The notes: a model not told the origin generated them from the letters alone. A stretch of 46,456 nucleotides of DNA from an uncultured Candidatus Saccharibacteria bacterium (GCA_964495505.1 CAZBVM010000002.1:1-46456), one strand, 5' to 3'. Shown: positions 160 through 11,359, counted from the stretch's first letter. Translations and numbers: made by a program.

Positions 160-870
160 ATGAAAATCGTCGCGGTAATAGGCGCGCGGGGCGGCTCAAA
201 AAGCATACCGGACAAAAATATCAAACTTTTCAACGGCAAGCCTCTTATCGCCTGGGCTATTTTGAATGCCAAAAAAAGCCAATTATTAGACAGGGTGATA
301 GTTTCTACCGACAGCCCCAAGATTGCCAAAATTGCCAAAAAATACGGCGCCGAAGTTCCTTTTTTAAGACCGAAAGAGTTGGCCACGCCGACTATCGGAC
401 TGGAACCTGTTTTGAAGCACGCCTACAGCTGGCTTTTAGAAAATGAAGAATATAAAGCGGATGCCCTGCTTCTTTTACCCGTTACTAACCCTCTCCGCCA
501 ACCCTTCCACATTGATGAAGCAATAAAAATTTTTAAAAATAAAAAGGCCGATTCCGTCGTGTCGGTAAATGAAACGCCCGCAAATCATACGCCGTATTGG
601 ACTCTCGTTCAAACAGATGCCGGCGTATCGCTCTTTGGCGGCATAGACCTTAAAAATATCCTTACCCGCCGGCAGGATTTTCCTCAAAAATGCTATACCC
701 GAAATGATTTGGTATACGTTCTAAAACCAGAAAATCTTTACGAAGAAAAACCGAATCTTTACGGCAAAAAAGTTGAACTTTACCAAACGAGCACAATTTA
801 CGAGGCGGACATTAATACCCCCGAAGAATGGGCTTTAACGGAAAATAGATTCAGACAACTCAAGAAATAA
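160..870 (+). CDS. CMP-sugar (acylneuraminate/nonulosonate-type) cytidylyltransferase family protein
   Basis: ATG start, 236 aa. The N-terminus MKIVAVIGARGGSKSIPDKNI...GKPLIAW...VSTDS matches my recollection of the NeuA/CTP_transf_3 family. No HMM was run. Confidence 0.75.
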   Translation: MKIVAVIGARGGSKSIPDKNIKLFNGKPLIAWAILNAKKSQLLDRVIVSTDSPKIAKIAKKYGAEVPFLRPKELATPTIGLEPVLKHAYSWLLENEEYKADALLLLPVTNPLRQPFHIDEAIKIFKNKKADSVVSVNETPANHTPYWTLVQTDAGVSLFGGIDLKNILTRRQDFPQKCYTRNDLVYVLKPENLYEEKPNLYGKKVELYQTSTIYEADINTPEEWALTENRFRQLKK

Positions 871-904
871 ACATTGTTTGACTTTGCGTAAAAATTTAAG
901 TAAA

Positions 905-934
905 TTGACTATTAAACGTCAGTTTTTTTAAAAT
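905..934 (+). promoter_or_regulatory. Candidate promoter for the radical SAM gene
   Basis: TTGACT (905-910), 18-nt spacer, TAAAAT (929-934). A strong SD AGGAGG lies at 953-958. Confidence 0.35.
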
Positions 935-964
935 TTGAGCTGATACTGGCACAGGAGGATGAAA

Positions 965-2524
965 ATGGGAACTTTGAAGAAAGCAAAAGTCGCATTGCTG
1001 ACTCCGAATCTTAAGGGCATTAAAGGAGGAGTTAATCGTATCCAGCCAAGCCTTGGAGTCGGTTATCTCGCGGCAGTGCTTCAAAGAGAAGGACATGAAG
1101 TTCATGTAAGGGACACCGCCCTTGAAAAATACGATAATCAGATTCTTATGGGTGATGGAAGGACAATTCTTATTGGTGAAACCGATACTGAAATCGCGAA
1201 CTATATAGAAAATATTAATCCCGATATTGTCGGAATTTCTGTGCTTTTTTCTAATCTTGCGGAACATGCGCACAGCATTGCCAGAATCGTGAAAGAAGTT
1301 AAACCAGACGCTTATGTAGTGGTGGGAGGAAATCATATTTCTAATGCCGCTAAAGATTATTGGTATGCGAGAGGTGCAGGAAGTAATGACTCTATTTTGG
1401 GGCAGACACTGCTTCGGGAGATGCAAGACCCAAACATTGATTTTGCGATGATCGGAGAGTGCGATTTCGAGTTTAATGATTTAGTTAACGCTTTGACAAA
1501 TCAACAAGACCTAGGGTCTGTTAAAAACTTAGTCTATAGAAGAAATGGGGATATAGGTTTTAATAATAAGCCCCTAAAACGAGACGACAAGAGATTTGAC
1601 ATTAGGGGCCTGCCGCATCCTGCGAGAGACCTTATGAAGATGGAAGCGTATTTTAAGATAGGCTCGTTTCACTCGACAAGATCCACTTCCGATAGAGTTT
1701 TAAACGTAATGGCGTCAAGAGGGTGCCCCGAGGTATGCACATTTTGCACCACTCCCGATATGTGGGGGATGGGCGTGCGCTGGAGAGATCCAAAAGACGT
1801 ATTCGATGAGATAAGAGATGGCATCAAAGCTTATAAAATAGAAGAACTGCAATTCGAGGACGACACTATAACCGCAAACAAAAACCATTTATATGAACTG
1901 TGTGATTTAATCGGCGCGCTCGGAATAAATTGGTGTACGCCCAATGGAACAAAAGTTAATTATCATATGAAAGAACAACCCGAAATGTACAGGCGCATGC
2001 GCGATGCGGGCTGCTACCAACTTACTCTTGCGTGTGAAACGGGAGTTCAGCGCGTTATGGACGAAATAATCCGAAAAAAACTCAATGTTGAACAGATTGG
2101 GCCGGCAATTGAAAATGCAAAGAATGCCGGGATGTTTGTTCATACGTTTTGGATTGCGGGTTACCCGGGAGAAACAAGAGAAGAAATGGAAAAAACTATA
2201 AGATTTGCCGCTAATACGGGAGCGGATAGTTTTTCTATTGCGATACTCTCTCCACTACCCGGAACGCCAATTTATAGGCATGTTGTTGAGGAAAATCTTT
2301 GGTGGCCTAACGTTAAAGGAATACAAGATATGACTTACAGAACTTCTTTAGTTAAAGTTGATGGTTTTAGAGGCCCGGAAGAATTTGAAGGATGGGTCGA
2401 AGACCACAATAGATATCTAAACCTTTTGCTTGAGCAAAAAAACCCCGCGCGCGCGCGAGCTTACAATAGCTTAAGCAGCGCGAGGAAATTGGATCCCGAA
2501 CAGAGATTCATGAAGCAAACATAA
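965..2524 (+). CDS. Cobalamin-binding (class B) radical SAM enzyme, a candidate C-methyltransferase
   Basis: The CxxxCxxC cluster motif CPEVCTFC is encoded at 1724-1747. The N-terminal ~150 aa is a Rossmann-like B12-binding-type domain (DIVGISVLF...VVVGGNHIS). AGGAGG lies 6 nt upstream of the ATG at 965, so 965 is preferred over the track start 959. Confidence 0.85.
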   Translation: MGTLKKAKVALLTPNLKGIKGGVNRIQPSLGVGYLAAVLQREGHEVHVRDTALEKYDNQILMGDGRTILIGETDTEIANYIENINPDIVGISVLFSNLAEHAHSIARIVKEVKPDAYVVVGGNHISNAAKDYWYARGAGSNDSILGQTLLREMQDPNIDFAMIGECDFEFNDLVNALTNQQDLGSVKNLVYRRNGDIGFNNKPLKRDDKRFDIRGLPHPARDLMKMEAYFKIGSFHSTRSTSDRVLNVMASRGCPEVCTFCTTPDMWGMGVRWRDPKDVFDEIRDGIKAYKIEELQFEDDTITANKNHLYELCDLIGALGINWCTPNGTKVNYHMKEQPEMYRRMRDAGCYQLTLACETGVQRVMDEIIRKKLNVEQIGPAIENAKNAGMFVHTFWIAGYPGETREEMEKTIRFAANTGADSFSIAILSPLPGTPIYRHVVEENLWWPNVKGIQDMTYRTSLVKVDGFRGPEEFEGWVEDHNRYLNLLLEQKNPARARAYNSLSSARKLDPEQRFMKQT

Positions 2525-3887
2525 AAGACAGGATAAAATTAACAATCCTTTCGCTTGATTTTCCGTCTGCTTTCCAAAGCTGTTGCAAAACAGCTTTTTT
2601 TCTTCCCTCGCGATCAATAGAGGGGTTATTAAGATATTCCTTAACGTAATCAATCAGCTGCTTCAAACTGACAGCTGATTTTACGGCTCCTGTTTTAAAA
2701 AATGCCCTCATATGATCTTCATCGTGAAATCGCCTGATACTTGACCAGTAGGACTTGGATTTAGGACAGTCAAAATTAATGACGATTTGCGGCTTATCAA
2801 ACATCAATGAATCCAAACATATCGAGGTCGCGATCCAAACAACAACGTCGGAATAATACAAGGTGTCTATAAGATGGCGATTATCCCGCATCGAAAATTC
2901 AAGAAATTTCCCGCTGTCTTTTATTACGCCGGGCATCTCAACAATAAAATCCTGATTGCTTTTAAACTTCTCTTTTAGCGTTATATCGGGATGAGTAGGA
3001 TGGTTTCTGATGAAAAACTGGATGTCTTTCGGTAAAATGCCGTTTTTTTTCGCAACTTTAAGGGTTCGGCAAATAGCAGTGTTGGTTTCGGACAGTTCCC
3101 GCCGTCCGGGTGAAAAGAAAATCGTCTTTTTCTCGGGATCTCCGCCTACTAATTTGAAAAATTCTTCCCGACTCTTAAAAGGCGCTTTCAAATAATCGTC
3201 AAATTGCGATAAGCCGCCGATAAAAATATCTTTTTCGGGATAATTATGCAACTCAACCGCTTCTTTTTTTATCACTTCGTTATTGACAATTAATTTGTCC
3301 GGAAAATGCCTCATGAGTCCCTTGCTGAAATTATTATCCCAAGACCGAACCATCCCGACGACAAAAACTTTTCTTATTTTTGCTTCTTTAATTAACGTTT
3401 GATCAAAATCGTCATAAACATCGGTTGAAAAAATAATATCGGGGTTATATTTTTCAAAATAATCTTTATAAAAATCGCGGGGCGAGAAATGCCAATCAAA
3501 AAACCTGAAAATCCTGTTTAAAACTTTGTGGCCGGATAAAAGCCACTCAACAGCCGTAAATACATGAAATTTCAAAAAATTGTAAAAACTCGGATGCTGG
3601 CTTAGATAATCGCGCCTTTTGCGGCGAATCCAATAGGTATAAATAAACAAAAAAGCAGCTTTTGAAAAAAAATTATTTGATCGGGAATTTGAAAATGGCG
3701 CCGGATCAATGCCCTCAATCGCCACATTGCCAGAACGGTAATTATTTTCAAAAAAATCTTTGATGGCAGCCGGCACTAAAAGGATAATTTTCAAATCTTC
3801 TCTTTTTTTCAAAATACCAAAAACATCCGTATTCAGGATATTTTTAGAAATGAAAGGATGGAAAGCTGTTATAAAAATTGTTTTCAT
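2508..3887 (-). CDS. GT-B-like transferase of the TagB/TagF (CDP-glycerol glycerophosphotransferase) / HP-motif type. It probably uses a cytidine-nucleotide-linked donor.
   Basis: 459 aa with an ATG start. KKTIFFSPGRRE resembles the TagF 'LYAPTxR' segment. IRNHPTHPD supplies an HP motif. YYSDVVVWIATSICLDSLMFDKPQIVINFD resembles the 'SDxlITDySS...KPii' C-terminal block. The ORF is solid but the function is tentative. Confidence 0.45.
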   Translation of the reverse strand: MKTIFITAFHPFISKNILNTDVFGILKKREDLKIILLVPAAIKDFFENNYRSGNVAIEGIDPAPFSNSRSNNFFSKAAFLFIYTYWIRRKRRDYLSQHPSFYNFLKFHVFTAVEWLLSGHKVLNRIFRFFDWHFSPRDFYKDYFEKYNPDIIFSTDVYDDFDQTLIKEAKIRKVFVVGMVRSWDNNFSKGLMRHFPDKLIVNNEVIKKEAVELHNYPEKDIFIGGLSQFDDYLKAPFKSREEFFKLVGGDPEKKTIFFSPGRRELSETNTAICRTLKVAKKNGILPKDIQFFIRNHPTHPDITLKEKFKSNQDFIVEMPGVIKDSGKFLEFSMRDNRHLIDTLYYSDVVVWIATSICLDSLMFDKPQIVINFDCPKSKSYWSSIRRFHDEDHMRAFFKTGAVKSAVSLKQLIDYVKEYLNNPSIDREGRKKAVLQQLWKADGKSSERIVNFILSFMFAS

Positions 3888-3908: not shown

Positions 3909-5801
3909 TTATTTTTGTTTAAATTTGTAAATCGAAAATTCCCCGGTATTTTTCAGAAAAATGAAATCGCGCGCGACTAGCGGCGGAACGCCACTTTTGC
4001 CTTTTTCAAAAACGGCGTAATCAATTCTGTAAGCCGGCTGCCACGAGAAATTAAGCGGCATATTTTTTAACTCTTGCTTTAAGGCAGCGCAGGCCGCGTC
4101 AAATTTAGCTTCCGGGATAACATATAGCCGGTTGTACCACAACGGGAAAAACGCCCGGACAATGGCTTTTTCAAAACCGGAAAAAAGAGCGCTTCTAAAT
4201 CCCCCGTTTCCCGCGGCGCCGGCGCAGTCAGACGCGGTCAAATCGGCGGATTCCGGATAAAACCGCGCGATATCCAGCCATCTTTTTTTAAATTCTACTT
4301 CGTCGCCGCCGCTAAATTTATACGCTCCGCCATCCCCCCAATATACCTTATGATTAGTATAAACAGTTATCACGTTGGCAAAACCCGGCGGCGCCAGCAC
4401 GACCCCCGGTTCCAAAGTCCTCAACGCCGTAATAAGCGGGCGATCGCGCTCGTCGGTCTTTGGAAAAGAAAAATCATGGCCGTGCAGGCGCCAGCTAAAC
4501 AGCGCCCCGAAAATCGCCGCAATTGCAATAAAAAAGATGGCAAATTTTTTAAGATATAAAGCCGGAACAGATGCGCCCCATAATCTCCATACCAAAAGCG
4601 CGTATCCGGTAACAAGCGGAACACTAATGCCAACGACAAGCCAACTCCGCCACGGTCTTCCATAAAACAAAGCAACAATATGCAGACCCAGAATAACAGA
4701 AAATATAACGGCAAGCGAGCGGAATTTAGATCGGTTCATCTCCGGCAACAGTTCAAAAAACGCGAATCCTAAAAGGATAATAGTGAAAAAATCTTCTAGA
4801 ATAAGATAATGGTCGGAAACAACGGCAAAACCCGTCACGATATTGCTGTTGATGGCTAAAAAGAGAGAGAAAAAAGAAATACCTAAAAAAAGCAATGTTT
4901 GGAACAAATGGGATTCGCCGGAGAATTTTTTAAATAAAACACGCGCCAAAGCGGCAAGCGCTAAAGCCGCGCCTAAAAGACGCAGTCCGGCTAACGGCAA
5001 AATCGGCAAACGGCCAAAACGGACGCCCATGCGTTCCAGCGACTCATGAACCGAATTAACCTGGCCGAGACCCGAAATATAGGCGTTATAAAAAACCACT
5101 ACATTGAGTATGGAAAACGCAACCCATAGTCCCAAGAGCGCCCAATAACGCCAATTTCGGTTAAAAACCGAAAACCATAGAAACCATAAGCCGCCAATCA
5201 GGACTCCTAAAGAAAAAGACACGGGATGGACGATAAAAAGAGTATTGGCAACGCCAATAATTATAACCTGATGCCAGAACTTTGAAAATTGCGGGGTTTT
5301 AAATAAAAGAATTATACCGACAATAAAAAATATCAAAAACCAGGAGGAAAGGCCGGGCTCAAGAAGCTGAAGCGGTCCGTAAAAGAAAACAAAAAACGCG
5401 GTAAGTCCAAGCGATTCCCATTGCTTCCGGCCGAAATTTTTAAATAAAAAGTATATTCCGATAAAAAGCGCGAACGCGCTTGCTCCTTTCAAAATAACAT
5501 GCCACCAGCCCATAGGAATCCGGCTTGCCTGCGGAATCAGGCGCATTATTGACTGAAAGAGAAGAAAACGCTCTTTTCCGCCCGAATGCTCCCAAAAATA
5601 CGGATTGTCGCTGAAGCGCTTTTGAAAAATATCGTTAAGCCAAACCAAATAAGGAGTATAAGCGCCTATATCGGTCCGCAGAGGTTCCTGAAAATTGCTT
5701 AAAAATGCCCAATAAAAAATATCCGGCAAAATAATGAGTAAAACAAAAAAAACTATAGCTATAATAAACCATATGCGGAAATTATTTGATGATTTTGACA
5801 T
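3909..5801 (-). CDS. Large polytopic membrane protein with a ~200-aa C-terminal extracytoplasmic domain (GT-C-like / unknown)
   Basis: 630 aa with more than 10 hydrophobic segments. The C-terminal domain is paralogous to that of 22292..24514: ITVYTNHKVYWG vs IPVYTANNVFYH, GGDEVEFKKRW vs SDDEVLDRF, YRIDYAVFEK vs YRVDYLVWDK. Confidence 0.6.
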   Translation of the reverse strand: MSKSSNNFRIWFIIAIVFFVLLIILPDIFYWAFLSNFQEPLRTDIGAYTPYLVWLNDIFQKRFSDNPYFWEHSGGKERFLLFQSIMRLIPQASRIPMGWWHVILKGASAFALFIGIYFLFKNFGRKQWESLGLTAFFVFFYGPLQLLEPGLSSWFLIFFIVGIILLFKTPQFSKFWHQVIIIGVANTLFIVHPVSFSLGVLIGGLWFLWFSVFNRNWRYWALLGLWVAFSILNVVVFYNAYISGLGQVNSVHESLERMGVRFGRLPILPLAGLRLLGAALALAALARVLFKKFSGESHLFQTLLFLGISFFSLFLAINSNIVTGFAVVSDHYLILEDFFTIILLGFAFFELLPEMNRSKFRSLAVIFSVILGLHIVALFYGRPWRSWLVVGISVPLVTGYALLVWRLWGASVPALYLKKFAIFFIAIAAIFGALFSWRLHGHDFSFPKTDERDRPLITALRTLEPGVVLAPPGFANVITVYTNHKVYWGDGGAYKFSGGDEVEFKKRWLDIARFYPESADLTASDCAGAAGNGGFRSALFSGFEKAIVRAFFPLWYNRLYVIPEAKFDAACAALKQELKNMPLNFSWQPAYRIDYAVFEKGKSGVPPLVARDFIFLKNTGEFSIYKFKQK

Positions 5802-6453
5802 ATACGAAATTGATTGATAGTACGCCCCATTCTTTTTTAAATCGGTCGCGAATGGGCAAAATTTTCACATCAAATTTGCTTCTGTCTATTTTTTCAATTA
5901 CCGATTTGGCGCCGACATCGTCTTTATTGAAATAATAATCGTCAAAAATGACAACGGAATTTTTGCGCATAAGCTCTTGAGCATAACGCCAATCATTGGT
6001 TATTGTCTCAATGCTGTGGCCGCCGTCTATAAATATAAAATCCATTTTTGGCAAAAAATAAACCACTTTGGGTAAAACTTTAAGCGTGTTGCCCTTAAAA
6101 AGGTTAACCTTAACACCTGTTTTTTCCAATTTTTTTCTAATTTCTTCCACGGACGGCGGCAGCTTTGAAACTTCCCTTTCAAGCATTTCATTTGTCATTT
6201 CTTCAAAAAGATCGAAACCGTAATAAGTTATTTCACTGGCCGGATAAAAATTTTTTGCCTCATTTATCATTTCTTCCGCCCGCCTTCCATTCCATGTCCC
6301 TATTTCCATAATATTTTTCGGTCGTATCTTTCTTATCGTTTCAAAAAGATAATAGTATCTTTTTGTTTCTTTGAAAAAATACTGATACCTTTTGGGAATA
6401 AAAACCGACGCAATCTTTTTAATTTTCTTATATAGATTCTTAGGATGTTCCAT
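5782..6453 (-). CDS. Class I SAM-dependent methyltransferase (Methyltransf_24 / O-methyltransferase-like)
   Basis: 223 aa. Motif I is IMEIGTWNGRRAEEM. IFIDGGHSIETITNDW is typical of this subfamily. Confidence 0.7.
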   Translation of the reverse strand: MEHPKNLYKKIKKIASVFIPKRYQYFFKETKRYYYLFETIRKIRPKNIMEIGTWNGRRAEEMINEAKNFYPASEITYYGFDLFEEMTNEMLEREVSKLPPSVEEIRKKLEKTGVKVNLFKGNTLKVLPKVVYFLPKMDFIFIDGGHSIETITNDWRYAQELMRKNSVVIFDDYYFNKDDVGAKSVIEKIDRSKFDVKILPIRDRFKKEWGVLSINFVYVKIIK

Positions 6454-6469: not shown

Positions 6470-7786
6470 TTAATTTTTAGTTGCTATTTTAATGGCGCGC
6501 CAAAATTTACGCTTTAACCAAAAAGATAAAAATTTCCTTGTCAATTTTTCGTGTTCAAAAGAATATTTAAAAACATTATTTCCGAAAAGAAACCCTTTTC
6601 CGTTAGCGCCCGCGACTTGTTTCTTATTATAAATTTCCGTAATTTCATTTATCATTTTTATTTTTTCCTGAAAAACTCTCGGTCTAAAAACCGGCACTTC
6701 ATCCAAATTGCTAAAAGTGTCTTTTTTTAAATTATCGCTTAAGAGGCCTTTTACAGAAACAAAACCCATGAACATAGCGGCTGCTTCATACGGCATAAAA
6801 AAGACAAAAGAATCAACCGTTTTAGAACGCTGACCCAATTTTATTTCAAATTTTTGATAAGAATTAATTGACAATTCCAAGGCCTGAAGCGGAGTGTTTA
6901 CAAAATCGGTAAAAATTTGCCCGTCCCCGAAAGTATTAAGATAAATATTTTTCGCTTTTTTATCTAAAGAAGAGTGATTTAAAAAATTTGTTTTTCTTAT
7001 TCCCAACTCCTCAATGCGTTCTAACTGAGAATACTGACGGGCCCAGTCGCCTAAAGAAAAGGCAATCTCAAAAACCATAAGCAGGCCTTCATAAAACAAT
7101 TTTATTAACTTTCGGACAGCTTGCTCTCGGTCAATCTTAAACCAATTTGACATCAAATCTTTAATATTTTCGGAAAAAGCGGGGCTAATTTTTCTGTTCG
7201 TGATATTATTAATTTCCCGAGTGATATAGATGATAGTTTTAAGCTCCTCTAAAACATGCCTTACGGGCAATTCTTTATTAATATAAAAGGGGAGAGTTGA
7301 AATCATTAACGCTAAAAATCTCTCGGCGTTGGTTAAACTCAAAATATCTTGTTCGTTTTTATCAAATTTTATATTTTCAAAATTTACGTCTTTTTCAATA
7401 TCCGAATTTTTATACAACAATCTGTGGCCATTGGGCCATACATTCATTGTCCAGGGATCAAAATAAAGCATTTTGCGGTAATGTTTTTCCGTAATAAGCG
7501 TGATGTGATGGCTCATTAGGTATTTGGTCTTCTCGGAAAGTTCTGGTTTTAGGGGAAGGTACATTTTTTCCGCGTCATCGCAAAATACCGCCCAAATATC
7601 CATATCCGATATGCCCGGGTACGGAATATACCCGTATTCGAGCAGGGCAACAAGCCCCGGAGTATTGCGAGCCTGATTAATTATCTCGACTCGCGCCTCG
7701 TCGTAATCGGCTTCGCCGCATTCAATAGGCAGATCATAAACGCGCCAGCCGTCTATTTCCATTACCTCTTGATTTTTAAAATTCAT
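6470..7786 (-). CDS. Uncharacterised 438-aa protein, with a possible N-terminal nucleotidyltransferase-fold segment
   Basis: Its ATG overlaps the upstream stop as ATGA (7783-7786). LLEYGYIPYPGISDMDIWAVF weakly resembles the pol-beta NTase G[SG]...D.D motif. The rest is unrecognised. Confidence 0.3.
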   Translation of the reverse strand: MNFKNQEVMEIDGWRVYDLPIECGEADYDEARVEIINQARNTPGLVALLEYGYIPYPGISDMDIWAVFCDDAEKMYLPLKPELSEKTKYLMSHHITLITEKHYRKMLYFDPWTMNVWPNGHRLLYKNSDIEKDVNFENIKFDKNEQDILSLTNAERFLALMISTLPFYINKELPVRHVLEELKTIIYITREINNITNRKISPAFSENIKDLMSNWFKIDREQAVRKLIKLFYEGLLMVFEIAFSLGDWARQYSQLERIEELGIRKTNFLNHSSLDKKAKNIYLNTFGDGQIFTDFVNTPLQALELSINSYQKFEIKLGQRSKTVDSFVFFMPYEAAAMFMGFVSVKGLLSDNLKKDTFSNLDEVPVFRPRVFQEKIKMINEITEIYNKKQVAGANGKGFLFGNNVFKYSFEHEKLTRKFLSFWLKRKFWRAIKIATKN

Positions 7787-9993
7787 AATATTGACATTAA
7801 TATTTTCCGAAGATCTTTCATGGCTATTTTTTTTGGATTATTTTGCATACGCTCAACGTTGACGCTTTTTACCGCTAAATCAATATCGCTTTGACGAACC
7901 CCAAATTTACGAAGCCTGGTTTCAAGGCCGATTTGTTCCATAAGGCCGGTAATTTTCCGTGATGCCGCTACCGCATTTGTGACTCCTAAAAGATGCGCCA
8001 ATTCAGTCATTGCCCGCTTATTGACATTGCTATTATAAACAAAAAACTTTCCTAAAGTTAGAGCAACGGCATGGCCGTGCGGGATGTTGAAATTGGAAGT
8101 AAAAAAATAAGATATCGCGTGAGGCGCGGTGGTTTTGGTGATATTAATGGCCTTGCCGGCCAAATGCGAGGCCAAAGCCATTGCCGAACGCGACTTTAAT
8201 GTCGGTTTTTTGACTGAATGAACTAAATTGCCCGATATCAACCGGATGGCTCTTTTGGCAAAGCGCTTGGAAACATCGGTGGCGTTAACGCACCAATACG
8301 ATTCTATCGCCTGCGACAGGGCGTCCATTCCAGACGACGCCGCAAGACGGGTCGGCATATTCATAGTTAATGCCGGTTCGATTATCGCGGCGGCCGGCAG
8401 TATAGATTTGTGGGCCACGGAATATTTTTTTTCTCCGGCATAAACAACGGCAAAATGAGTCGCTTCGCTTCCCGAGCCGGCCGTGGTGGGCACGGCAATA
8501 AGCGGTTTGCCGGAATTTTTTATAATTCTTTTAGAAGTAATATATTCAATCGGCCGACCGCTTTGAACCGAAAAAATATTAATAAGCTTCGCCATATCAA
8601 TAACACTGCCGCCGCCAATTGCCGCGACGACATCGTATTTTTTCTTTTTAAAAATACTTATTCCCCACTCCACGTCTTCCAATTTTGGATTGGAACTGAA
8701 GTCGCTGAATTTTGTAACTTCATAAAATGATAAAATTTTACGAAACAGCCGTTCCGCGCCCGACGCAATGTACGACTTTCCTCCGGTAACCAGAAATATT
8801 CTTCTAACTTTATTCTTTTCAAAAAAAATTTTTAATTTTTTCGCCGCCAAAAAAGTCCGTGAGCCCCTATTTATAAAATCCATAAACAAATTTTTATTTT
8901 CTTTGGGACTTAAAGTCGGGCGGCTAAGATTATCCCGCGAACCTTTCTTTACCGCCACTTCAAGCAGCGCCGGGCCCGGCATTTTTTTAAAATCGGCAAG
9001 AATATCTCTTAATTTTCCGGCTTTTGAAACTCTAAATACATTTTTATAACCGCAATCGCGCGCTACTTTTGGAATATCCATTGAGAAAGCGGCTGTCGGC
9101 TGGCCGCCTACCGACTCGTACGCGTAATTATTTAAAACTATATGCTTGAAATTTTTAGGCGCCATGTTGCCGATGATTGCAAGCGCGCCCATATGCATAA
9201 TCAAAGCGCCATCGCCGTCAAGGCAGTACACCTGGCTTTCCGGCTTGGCCAACGCCACGCCCAAAGCAATTTGAGAGGAATGCCCCATCGAGCCAACAGT
9301 CAAAAAGTCCTTTTCATGACCGAGGCCGGAATTTTCCCGTACTTCGAAAAGCTCGCGCGAGGTTTTGCCGGTCGTTGACACAAAAATTTCATCGTCCCGC
9401 AATTCGTCTGTGATAATTTCTATGGCCTCTTCCCGCGAAAGCGGCAAATTCAACGGTTGAACCGGATTCTTAAACACATACGGCGCGAAGGTGTTGCTTC
9501 TCACAACAAGCGCGTACGGAGCGCTGGACGTATTCAGATAATCAATAGCTCTACTTATGGCCTTTTTCACGCCGCCCAGAGACCTCGGCAATATTTCAAA
9601 GGAAATACCCAGTGCCGTCAAAATCCCGAGCGTTATTTTTCCTTGCTTAACATGTTGGGGTTCGTCATCAACACCGGGTTCGCCTCTCCAACCTATCAGT
9701 AAAATCATTGGAATGCCGTAAACTTCCGGATCGGCCAGTGAAACCAAAGGATTAATAGCGTTGCCCTCCCCGGAATTTTGCATATAAACCAGGCCGATTT
9801 TTCCGGTAGCCAGATGGTAGCCAGCCGCTAAAGCGACGGCGCCGCCTTCATTGGCGGCAATAATGTGAGAACTCGGTTTCGCGTTGTTGATTATATAATC
9901 GGAAAAGTCTTTTAACAGCGAATCGGGAACGCCAGAAAAAAAGCCAATCCCATTTTTAACCAGCAGGTCATAAAATGTTTTTGGCGAAATCAT
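7783..9993 (-). CDS. Fusion protein: phosphonopyruvate decarboxylase (N-terminal, ThDP-dependent) plus iron-containing alcohol dehydrogenase (C-terminal, phosphonoacetaldehyde reductase-like)
   Basis: The start is set at the ATG 9993, which forms an ATGA overlap with the pepM stop. The protein then begins [30 protein letters not shown], the canonical Ppd N-terminus. [10 protein letters not shown] is a ThDP motif. The C-terminal half (about 7783-8850) has FLVTGGKSY...[13 protein letters not shown]...HGHAVA, typical of Fe-ADH. Confidence 0.85.
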
Positions 9994-11321
9994 AAATTCA
10001 AATCTAGCAGTTCCTTTACCGGCATGCAAAATTTCTCCGATTCCAGACATCTTTGATTTTCCAAGATAGATTTTGCCGTTTTTTCCATGGCTGGATAGGA
10101 GCTTCTCAAAAGATGATTGGCGTAAATTACCATCCGCACTCCGCTTTTAACCAGCTCTTCTTCGGTGATAGAGTTGTAGGTTGTCGGCACGGCTACTAGA
10201 GGGGCCTTGCTCACAAATTTTTGATAATTTTTGCAAAAATCTAAAATTTCCGACGGGTCTTTTTCTTTACTGTGAATCATGATGCCGTCGGCTCCGGCGC
10301 TTATATAGGCCTTGGCTCTCGCCAAAGCGTCTTTGAGTCCCTTTTGGAGTATCAAACTTTCAATCCTCGCAACAATCATAAAGTCATCCGTCACTTGCGC
10401 TCTCTTTCCCGCCGATATTTTCGCGCAAAAATTTAGAGTACTATCCTGGTCTTGGGCGACATCGGTTCCATATAATGAATTGCGTTTTAATCCGGTCTTG
10501 TCCTCAATAATAATGCCGGAAACGCCGAGACGCTCTAGGGTTTTCACTGTGGATTCAAAATGTTCTATCGGACCGCCGTTGTCGCCATCCATTATGAGCG
10601 GCTTAGTGGTGACATCAAAGACCTCATTTATGGTATTAAGGCGGGAAGTAAAATCAACAATCCCGGTGTCGGGCTTGCCCTTCGCTACGGAATCGGTCAA
10701 GCTGCTAAGCCACATTCCGTCGAATTCTTGAATTTTGCCATCCTTGGCAATTTTTGTTTTCTCTACAATTTTACCGGTAAGTCCGTTATGGACTTCTAAA
10801 ATCCTGACCAGTGGTTTGGTATTAAGCGCTCGTCTAATCATTCGCATTCGTTTTTCCGGAGTAGTCCCAACGCGGGTTATCGCCTCTATGAGTTTGGTAG
10901 AAGACACGCCGGGGGTATATTTTGGTTCAACAAGTTTGCCCCCCCATTCTTTAAGGGTTTGAATTACCCGTTCTCTAACTTCCTTCTGGACTCCGGTTTT
11001 CCAATCATCGCCATGCACTACATAGTCGGGTTTAAGCCGGCGCAAATTCGGCACATAATCAAGGGTTGTCTGCGGTATAATAGCGCTGACACCTTTAATA
11101 TTTTCAATGACGATTTTGCGTTGTTCATAAGTCAAAAATGGAACCCGTTTGTAGCTTGCTATTGCTTCATCCGTAACAAGACCAATCACAACTTGTCCCA
11201 GTTTTTGGGCTTTACTTATAATATTAAGATGGCCCGGATGCAATAAATCAGCAGCCATTGCCACGTAAACAATTCTTTTTTTATTTAATTTCTTCTCCAT
11301 CTTGCTTATGCTACTTTCCAT
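9990..11321 (-). CDS. pepM: Bifunctional cytidylyltransferase / phosphoenolpyruvate mutase (Fom1-like architecture)
   Basis: The PepM signature [10 protein letters not shown] (EDKx5NS) is encoded at 10476-10505. The N-terminal ~130 aa has the HxGH cytidylyltransferase motif ([10 protein letters not shown], about 11229-11240) and DYVVHGDDW. The track start 11339 is TTG. The ATGs at 11321 and 11300 are the alternatives, so the start is uncertain. Confidence 0.9.
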
Positions 11322-11359
11322 ATTATACAACTTATACAACGCTAAAAAATAGACAGGGG

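Follow-up and report, generated by a model that had tools for sequence, protein, structure and literature searches.

The window analysed here is one entire 46.5 kb contig (G000:C2; CAZBVM010000002.1) of a 642 kb bacterial genome in 49 contigs, and the genes in question are the three at its positions 160 to 3,887, which encode a cytidylyltransferase (CTase), a class B radical S-adenosylmethionine enzyme (rSAM) and a TagF-like transferase. The original prediction had taken them as one toolkit for substrates linked to cytidine monophosphate (CMP), serving the neighbouring phosphonate operon. It is clear that the three genes are real; the common purpose is the part that fared less well, the TagF-like gene tracking cytidylyltransferases of the CTP_transf_3 family and NeuB instead. 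The reading favoured here, with a probability of roughly 0.55, is that these 3.7 kb hold parts of two abutting surface-glycan modules, the rSAM belonging to a phosphonate module and the CTase and TagF-like protein to an ulosonic-acid module.

In the proposed scheme two fusion proteins, one joining a cytidylyltransferase domain (CyTase) to phosphoenolpyruvate mutase (PepM) and the other joining phosphonopyruvate decarboxylase (Ppd) to an iron-dependent alcohol dehydrogenase (Fe-ADH), would make CMP-activated 2-hydroxyethylphosphonate (CMP-HEP), as expected from the established chemistry of Fom1, Fom2 and FomC. The rSAM would then methylate the nucleotide-bound phosphonate in the manner of Fom3, giving a hydroxypropylphosphonate-type head group. 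In the other module the CTase would activate a sialic-acid-like (ulosonic) sugar made by NeuB as its CMP ester, and the TagF-fold enzyme, of the glycosyltransferase B (GT-B) class, would transfer the sugar from its CMP ester to the nascent glycan, like the pseudaminic/legionaminic-acid (Pse/Leg) transferases of Tannerella. The phosphonate itself would more likely be placed on the glycan by an orphan protein of 438 amino acids (orf438), a candidate put forward from its gene neighbourhood. The features of the three genes are as follows.

160-870, plus strand: CTP_transf_3 cytidylyltransferase of the PseF/NeuA/KdsB type, 236 amino acids (PF02348, 79 bits, E 5e-22)
905-958, plus strand: promoter-like TTGACT-18-TAAAAT at 905-934, a match to the consensus only, followed by GGAGG at 954-958, both upstream of the rSAM gene
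959/965-2524, plus strand: class B (cobalamin-type) radical SAM enzyme, 521 amino acids (PF02310 and PF04055)
1724-1747, plus strand: CPEVCTFC, the CxxxCxxC motif of the 4Fe-4S cluster; C256, C260 and C263 are invariant in 15 homologues
2508-3887, minus strand: GT-B transferase of the TagF/TagB superfamily, 459 amino acids (PF04464, NF046086 and an AlphaFold2 model)
2985-3005, minus strand: NHPTHPD, containing the HP motif (H296-P297), which is conserved in 13 of 15 sequences of the family and lines up by eye with KMHP of TarL
3333-3356, minus strand: GMVRSWDN, a motif of the N-terminal domain, with R181, S182, W183, D184 and N185 the same throughout the family

All three open reading frames lie where they had been predicted, and profile searches with Pfam bear out the three domain assignments.

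The placing of the TagF-like protein in a sugar module draws on its distribution. An even set of 401 genomes from the phylum contains 14 with the TagF-like family and 11 with PepM; only two carry both, the window's own genome and a second, weakly matching one in which PepM lies on a different contig. CTP_transf_3 is present in all 14 of the TagF-like-positive genomes, usually within a few kb, against 61 of the 401 overall; these 14 genomes fall into 11 genera, and the counts are therefore not independent. At the level of loci (78 from species genomes, the window and three further loci, 82 together) an orthologue of CTP_transf_3 was found in 46 and NeuB in 34. When only loci with a TagF-like gene at least about 37% identical are considered, the CTase is present in 27 of 31 and is the immediate neighbour in about half of those 27. 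Co-occurrence with pepM, which the original prediction had named as a test of phosphonyl transfer by the TagF-like protein, failed: PepM lies within 10 kb in 3 of the 82 loci, and it went undetected in the five genomes whose TagF-like orthologues are closest (74, 71, 62, 59 and 45% identical), genomes of unknown completeness.

The sequence and predicted fold of the 459-residue protein agree with the TagF/TagB superfamily. Its match to Glyphos_transf (PF04464) scores 39.9 bits (cut-off 22.1) and aligns residues 196-453 with profile positions 135-366, the C-terminal half only. The motif blocks quoted for it previously are present, FFSPGRRE at residues 257-264, NHPTHPD at 295-301 and YYSDVVVW...DKPQIV at 344-369. 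The model NF046086, which represents BFO_1060, matches all 15 of 15 family members with a best E of 1.8e-19, the window protein itself scoring 47.4 bits, below the cut-off of 200; the NCBIfam models for TarF and TarL each match one of the 15, at about 1e-4. BFO_1060 and Tanf_01245, verified by knock-out as transferases of pseudaminic and legionaminic acid, contain both an HP motif and a TagB-like domain (PMC5420450).

The AlphaFold2 model (pLDDT 91) has a GT-B fold. In a fold search with it UDP-GlcNAc 2-epimerases came top (Z 22-25), with many GT-B enzymes also matched; among transferases TarL (Z 21.2, rmsd 3.5, 316 residues aligned) and TagF (Z 19.9, rmsd 3.8, 332 aligned) led, and further matches included WaaA (Z 19.9) and a polysialyltransferase (Z 15.7). 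Since the epimerases outscore TagF and TarL, the fold is that of a generic GT-B enzyme. The modelled fold confirms the superfamily, within which a CMP-sugar donor and a donor of the type of a cytidine diphosphate (CDP)-alcohol are not separable by fold. A sequence search of the PDB with the protein gave nothing at E <= 1, and the family profile found there only TarL (E 0.71) and a glucosyltransferase (E 0.23); tblastn against plasmids returned one weak Rhizobium match and no canonical TagF sequence. From its family, motifs and conserved neighbours the TagF-like protein is most likely a CMP-ulosonic-acid:glycan transferase, paired with the CTase for a sialic-acid-like sugar. It is a distant, uncharacterised relative of the known kind of nonulosonic-acid transferase.

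The CTase is probably a CMP-ulosonic-acid synthetase, judging from its best NCBIfam model, PseF (TIGR03584, 149.9 bits), and is an ordinary enzyme. NeuB is encoded in the same genome, on contig C9 rather than in the window. The first 20 kb of that contig (L008, 1-20000) carry, besides NeuB, a flippase, TylF-type and other methyltransferases, a transketolase/E1-like pair, DegT and NUDIX proteins, an HldE-like fusion of CTP_transf_like and PfkB (kinase/nucleotidyltransferase), and SIS, SDR and HAD phosphatase proteins. These genes make up an unusual ulosonic-acid pathway, and synteny with L005 suggests that the right end of C9 adjoins the left end of the window.

Assignment of the rSAM to the phosphonate module follows from the family rather than from the window alone. 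Its loci, 80 from metagenomes and three from genomes, number 83, many of them shorter than 5 kb; partners were detected by tblastn with the window's own proteins and by clustering of open reading frames. Of the 83 loci, 37 hold PepM, in most cases fused to the CyTase, and 41 hold at least one of PepM and Ppd; where the total flank is 12 kb or more, the latter holds for 22 of 27. Several orders recur: CyTase-PepM, Ppd, ADH and rSAM in L093, L129 and L098; Ppd, rSAM, CyTase-PepM and ADH in L152; and CyTase-PepM, Ppd, aminotransferase, a small CyTase, an APS-kinase-like protein, rSAM and PhyH in L106, L111 and L160. In the 73% identical homologue the rSAM gene overlaps the stop codon of an NTP_transferase gene, an arrangement of translational coupling, and Ppd and Fe-ADH follow. 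The family thus sits in operons of CyTase-PepM, Ppd and either Fe-ADH or an aminotransferase in many phyla, and in the window all of the Fom3-type partners (CyTase-PepM, Ppd and ADH) are inside about 9 kb of the rSAM. The link between rSAM and phosphonate had been rated as weaker than that of the core module; this family context, together with the match to a methyltransferase-family model described below, supports a stronger one.

Other genes also recur beside the rSAM. A TonB-dependent receptor and DUF6580 adjoin it in 14-16 marine loci (e.g. L003, L122, L125, L140 and L150) and may be a cobalamin uptake pair. Further partners are a PhyH-type dioxygenase (25 loci) and the APS-kinase-like protein (19 loci). 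The family was not discussed in the marine phosphonate papers that were found.

In the rSAM sequence the B12-binding domain (PF02310) scores 52.8 bits (cut-off 32.1) and the Radical_SAM domain (PF04055) 66.9 bits (cut-off 29.5); CPEVCTFC lies exactly at the nucleotides given for it, as residues 256-263. The GGAGG is 6 nucleotides ahead of the ATG at 965 and 0 nucleotides ahead of that at 959; this spacing suits the former, and the predicted start at 965 is therefore preferred to the first in-frame ATG at 959. The promoter-like sequence upstream suggests that the gene may have its own promoter. Homologues 90% and 73% identical lie on two short contigs, and the rest (52-63%) come from Nitrospinota-type, Omnitrophota, Magnetococcales and DPANN-type organisms and from many ocean metagenome sequences; the family is strongly conserved in bacteria and in DPANN-type archaea alike, and 15 of its sequences align with a mean column identity of 63%. 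The best of 28 NCBIfam matches is NF038361 (Sden_1168) at 222 bits, with HpnJ next, and the Sden_1168 model is likewise the best match for 15 of 15 family members. As the score falls under the NF038361 cut-off, the enzyme stands outside the Sden_1168 family proper.

Fom3 is the methylcobalamin radical SAM enzyme that C-methylates cytidylyl-2-HEP in Streptomyces fosfomycin biosynthesis (PMC8158854, PMC9204698). SD1168, whose physiological substrate is unknown, falls in the same main cluster of a sequence similarity network as Fom3, and inside that cluster Fom3 co-localises with HpnJ and MoeK5 (PMC9204698). The rSAM adds a member to a widespread family that is uncharacterised but Fom3-like by context. 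The Fom3-like reading is supported at the level of the family by its adjoining PepM and Ppd, by the Fom-like gene order and by Sden_1168 as best model, and by these signs the enzyme probably methylates nucleotide-activated 2-hydroxyethylphosphonate.

Nearly the entire contig is a surface-glycan locus, with GT4, GT2, PMT_2, many methyltransferases, Wzy_C, Gmd and DegT, and the nearest homologues of its proteins are in Candidatus Azambacteria and other Parcubacteria/Patescibacteria of the candidate phyla radiation (CPR). The TagF-like gene had been described as the end of a minus-strand train that starts with pepM, and it does close such a train, with its genes tightly packed; in order of transcription, upstream of the TagF-like gene, these are the following.

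9990-11339, minus strand: CyTase fused to PEP mutase, Fom1-like (TIGR02320, 393 bits; PF01467, 55 bits)
7783-10050, minus strand: phosphonopyruvate decarboxylase fused to Fe-alcohol dehydrogenase, which would make 2-HEP (TIGR03297, 478 bits; Fe-ADH)
6470-7786, minus strand: orf438, orphan protein of 438 amino acids with a nucleotidyltransferase (NTase)-type fold and without a Pfam match
5782-6453, minus strand: Methyltransf_24 methyltransferase, by Pfam
3909-5801, minus strand: polytopic membrane protein of 630 amino acids, without a Pfam match

In L015, L020 and L027, three loci in which PepM had no match, a homologue of the Methyltransf_24 gene (45-65% identical) immediately precedes the TagF-like gene. 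This methyltransferase, its position in the pepM train notwithstanding, probably belongs to the sugar module rather than to the phosphonate module.

Several observations weigh against the assignment to two modules. The BFO_1060 match is weak for the window protein (47 bits against 200) and covers its C-terminal domain only, and among transferases with a solved structure TagF and TarL match it best. In the window, L004 and L005 one tightly packed operon holds pepM and, as its final gene, the TagF-like gene, so that the latter is indeed co-transcribed with the phosphonate genes. CMP-HEP, furthermore, is a close analogue of, and isosteric with, the CDP-alcohol donors of TagF and TarL. As for the rSAM, its gene lies on the opposite strand, some 7.5 kb away from pepM and next to the CTase, and may have a promoter of its own; moreover, what L004 has between its CTase and TagF-like genes is a B12-rSAM unrelated to that of the window (21% identical), so that position alone could point to a sugar substrate. 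A conserved trio of CTase, B12-rSAM and TagF-like gene, considered on the basis of L004, was dropped, the two rSAMs belonging to different families. Separately, 21 loci pair CTP_transf_3 with an rSAM of another family, 553-574 amino acids long, whose B12-binding domain is a weak one (for example L004:15553-17277, L009:12144-13805 and L005:13243-14922).

The observations on the TagF-like gene would also fit an enzyme that, as first proposed, uses CMP-HEP or CMP-hydroxypropylphosphonate and transfers the phosphonyl unit onto a glycan hydroxyl in analogy to teichoic acid, or one that even polymerises it. The PF04464 match and the nearness of the fold to TarL and TagF among transferases agree with this, as does L009, where a stand-alone CTP_transf_like protein, an MFS transporter and orf438 lie upstream of the 74% identical TagF-like orthologue. 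The proposal is nevertheless unlikely given how seldom, as counted above, PepM accompanies the family. A cytidylyltransferase of the TagD type (CTP_transf_like) was detected with five queries in only 1 of 78 TagF-like loci; L011 and L012, whose TagF-like proteins are 62% and 59% identical, lack CyTase and orf438 and keep CTP_transf_3 and NeuB; with the 459-residue protein as query no TagF-like gene was detected in the 83 rSAM loci; and L167-L169 carry orf438 and a nucleotidyltransferase with no TagF-like gene called, PepM being present only in L169. That the TagF-fold enzyme attaches or polymerises CMP-activated (and perhaps methylated) HEP via its free hydroxyl, to give a 'phosphono-teichoic' polymer, is rather improbable; were it true, this would be the first identified glycan phosphonyl transferase of TagF type. 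It is more improbable still that the protein simply serves as a CDP-glycerol or CDP-ribitol phosphotransferase whose product is a polymer like teichoic acid. The Glyphos_transf score above threshold and the closeness of the fold to TarL and TagF would fit, and many distant TagF-like relatives occur as two to four paralogues per locus, like polymerase sets. Such a donor was set aside on the rarity of the TagD-type enzyme and the want of any recurrent TarI- or TarJ-like neighbour in the TagF-like loci, those that recur in loci lacking the CTase resembling methyltransferases; the scarce TarF and TarL model matches point the same way.

The position of the rSAM gene, on the CTase strand and 88 nucleotides downstream of it, raises the alternative that the rSAM acts on a sugar, C-methylating or otherwise modifying the ulosonic acid or a precursor together with the adjoining CTase. 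No orthologue of the 553-574-residue rSAM was found by tblastn of the window's assembly, and the window rSAM could substitute for it; NeuB occurs in 10 and CTP_transf_3 in 9 of the 83 loci of the rSAM family. This alternative is doubtful all the same, as PepM or Ppd is about four times commoner than NeuB in those loci and the rSAM often lies between ppd, adh and pepM in one operon. The 73% identical homologue is in an operon of Ppd, ADH and NTP-transferase, its contig, only 6.8 kb long, carries no sugar genes, and the window rSAM is only 21-23% identical to the rSAMs that are linked to the CTase.

With the TagF-like protein assigned to the sugar, orf438 is the more likely protein to transfer the CMP-activated phosphonate. 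Its gene overlaps the stop codon of ppd-adh. The family comprises 42 proteins without a Pfam match, and every named member is from CPR bacteria; the AlphaFold2 model (pLDDT 88) gave weak matches to nucleotidyltransferase folds of the Pol-beta type. A conserved G-I-S-D-M-D motif is present. In 7 of 7 contexts orf438 adjoins a nucleotidyltransferase, namely the CyTase-PepM fusion in four, a stand-alone CTP_transf_like protein with an MFS transporter in two and a LicC-like NTP_transferase with MFS in one, and a TagF-like gene is absent from 3 of the 7. As a lead from neighbourhood, this pattern fits a LicD-like role, with CMP-activated phosphonates or phospho-alcohols as candidate substrates.

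Three loci, L009:4240-7353, L168:6193-9305 and L167:8001-11334, combine a stand-alone cytidylyl- or nucleotidyltransferase, MFS and an orf438 homologue without PepM, Ppd or ADH; these salvage-looking variants suggest that a phospho(no)-compound is taken up from outside and activated. In two loci without PepM (L167:5250-6770 and L168:9302-10816) the direct neighbour of orf438 is a class B rSAM of another family, the two copies sharing 67% identity with one another and 28-30% with the window rSAM. In the literature that was found, the enzyme that places phosphonates on bacterial glycans is not named, the product of the widespread Fom3-like rSAMs in surface-phosphonate operons is not described, and nothing joins pepM and phosphonate with a glycerophosphotransferase.

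These results remove the TagF-like protein as an attractive candidate for the phosphonate transferase and indicate in its place a CPR-specific family with an NTase fold. They also add a CPR example to an rSAM family that is highly conserved across phyla and that leads one to expect methylated phosphonate head groups at the cell surface, in marine microbes among others. Here a symbiont-type genome of 0.64 Mb devotes more than 46 kb to glycan genes and also retains an enzyme dependent on B12.

The closest known system for the rSAM is Fom3, to which it is likened by domain architecture, neighbourhood and curated models. The window enzyme is likewise a class B rSAM, and its family keeps company with CyTase-PepM, Ppd and Fe-ADH, the set of Fom1, Fom2 and FomC, often in the same order. 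It differs in that the window lacks epoxidase and CMP-hydrolase genes and is a cell-surface glycan locus, in that many members of the family have an aminotransferase in place of the ADH, and in that its gene is on the strand opposite pepM at the distance already given. The nearest curated model is that of Sden_1168, a B12-rSAM methyltransferase of Shewanella denitrificans studied as a relative of the phosphinothricin P-methylase; the match is nearly full length (residues 8-445 against model positions 62-476 of 560), whereas the score of 222 bits is well short of the curated cut-off of 575. Similarly, residues 4-232 of the CTase align full length with positions 1-221 of 222 of the PseF model, and the CTase is paired with NeuB across relatives as PseF/NeuA/KdsB enzymes would be, whereas its score is below the equivalog cut-off (150 against 205.7); the exact sugar is therefore not fixed by the model.

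For the TagF-like protein two comparisons can be drawn. With TagF and TarL (PDB 3l7i and 8va1) it shares the GT-B fold and motifs that line up, KK..(F/Y)(A/S)P and HP, whereas its N-terminal domain is outside the Pfam match, the profile reaches TarL only at E 0.71 and the window has no genes for synthesis of CDP-glycerol or CDP-ribitol nearby. From Tanf_01245 and BFO_1060 of Tannerella forsythia it differs in its low score, confined to the C-terminal domain (47 bits against 200), and in its CPR host; it resembles them as a GT-B protein of the TagB superfamily, theirs being of about 445 amino acids, with an HP motif and a place beside genes for CMP-nonulosonic acid.

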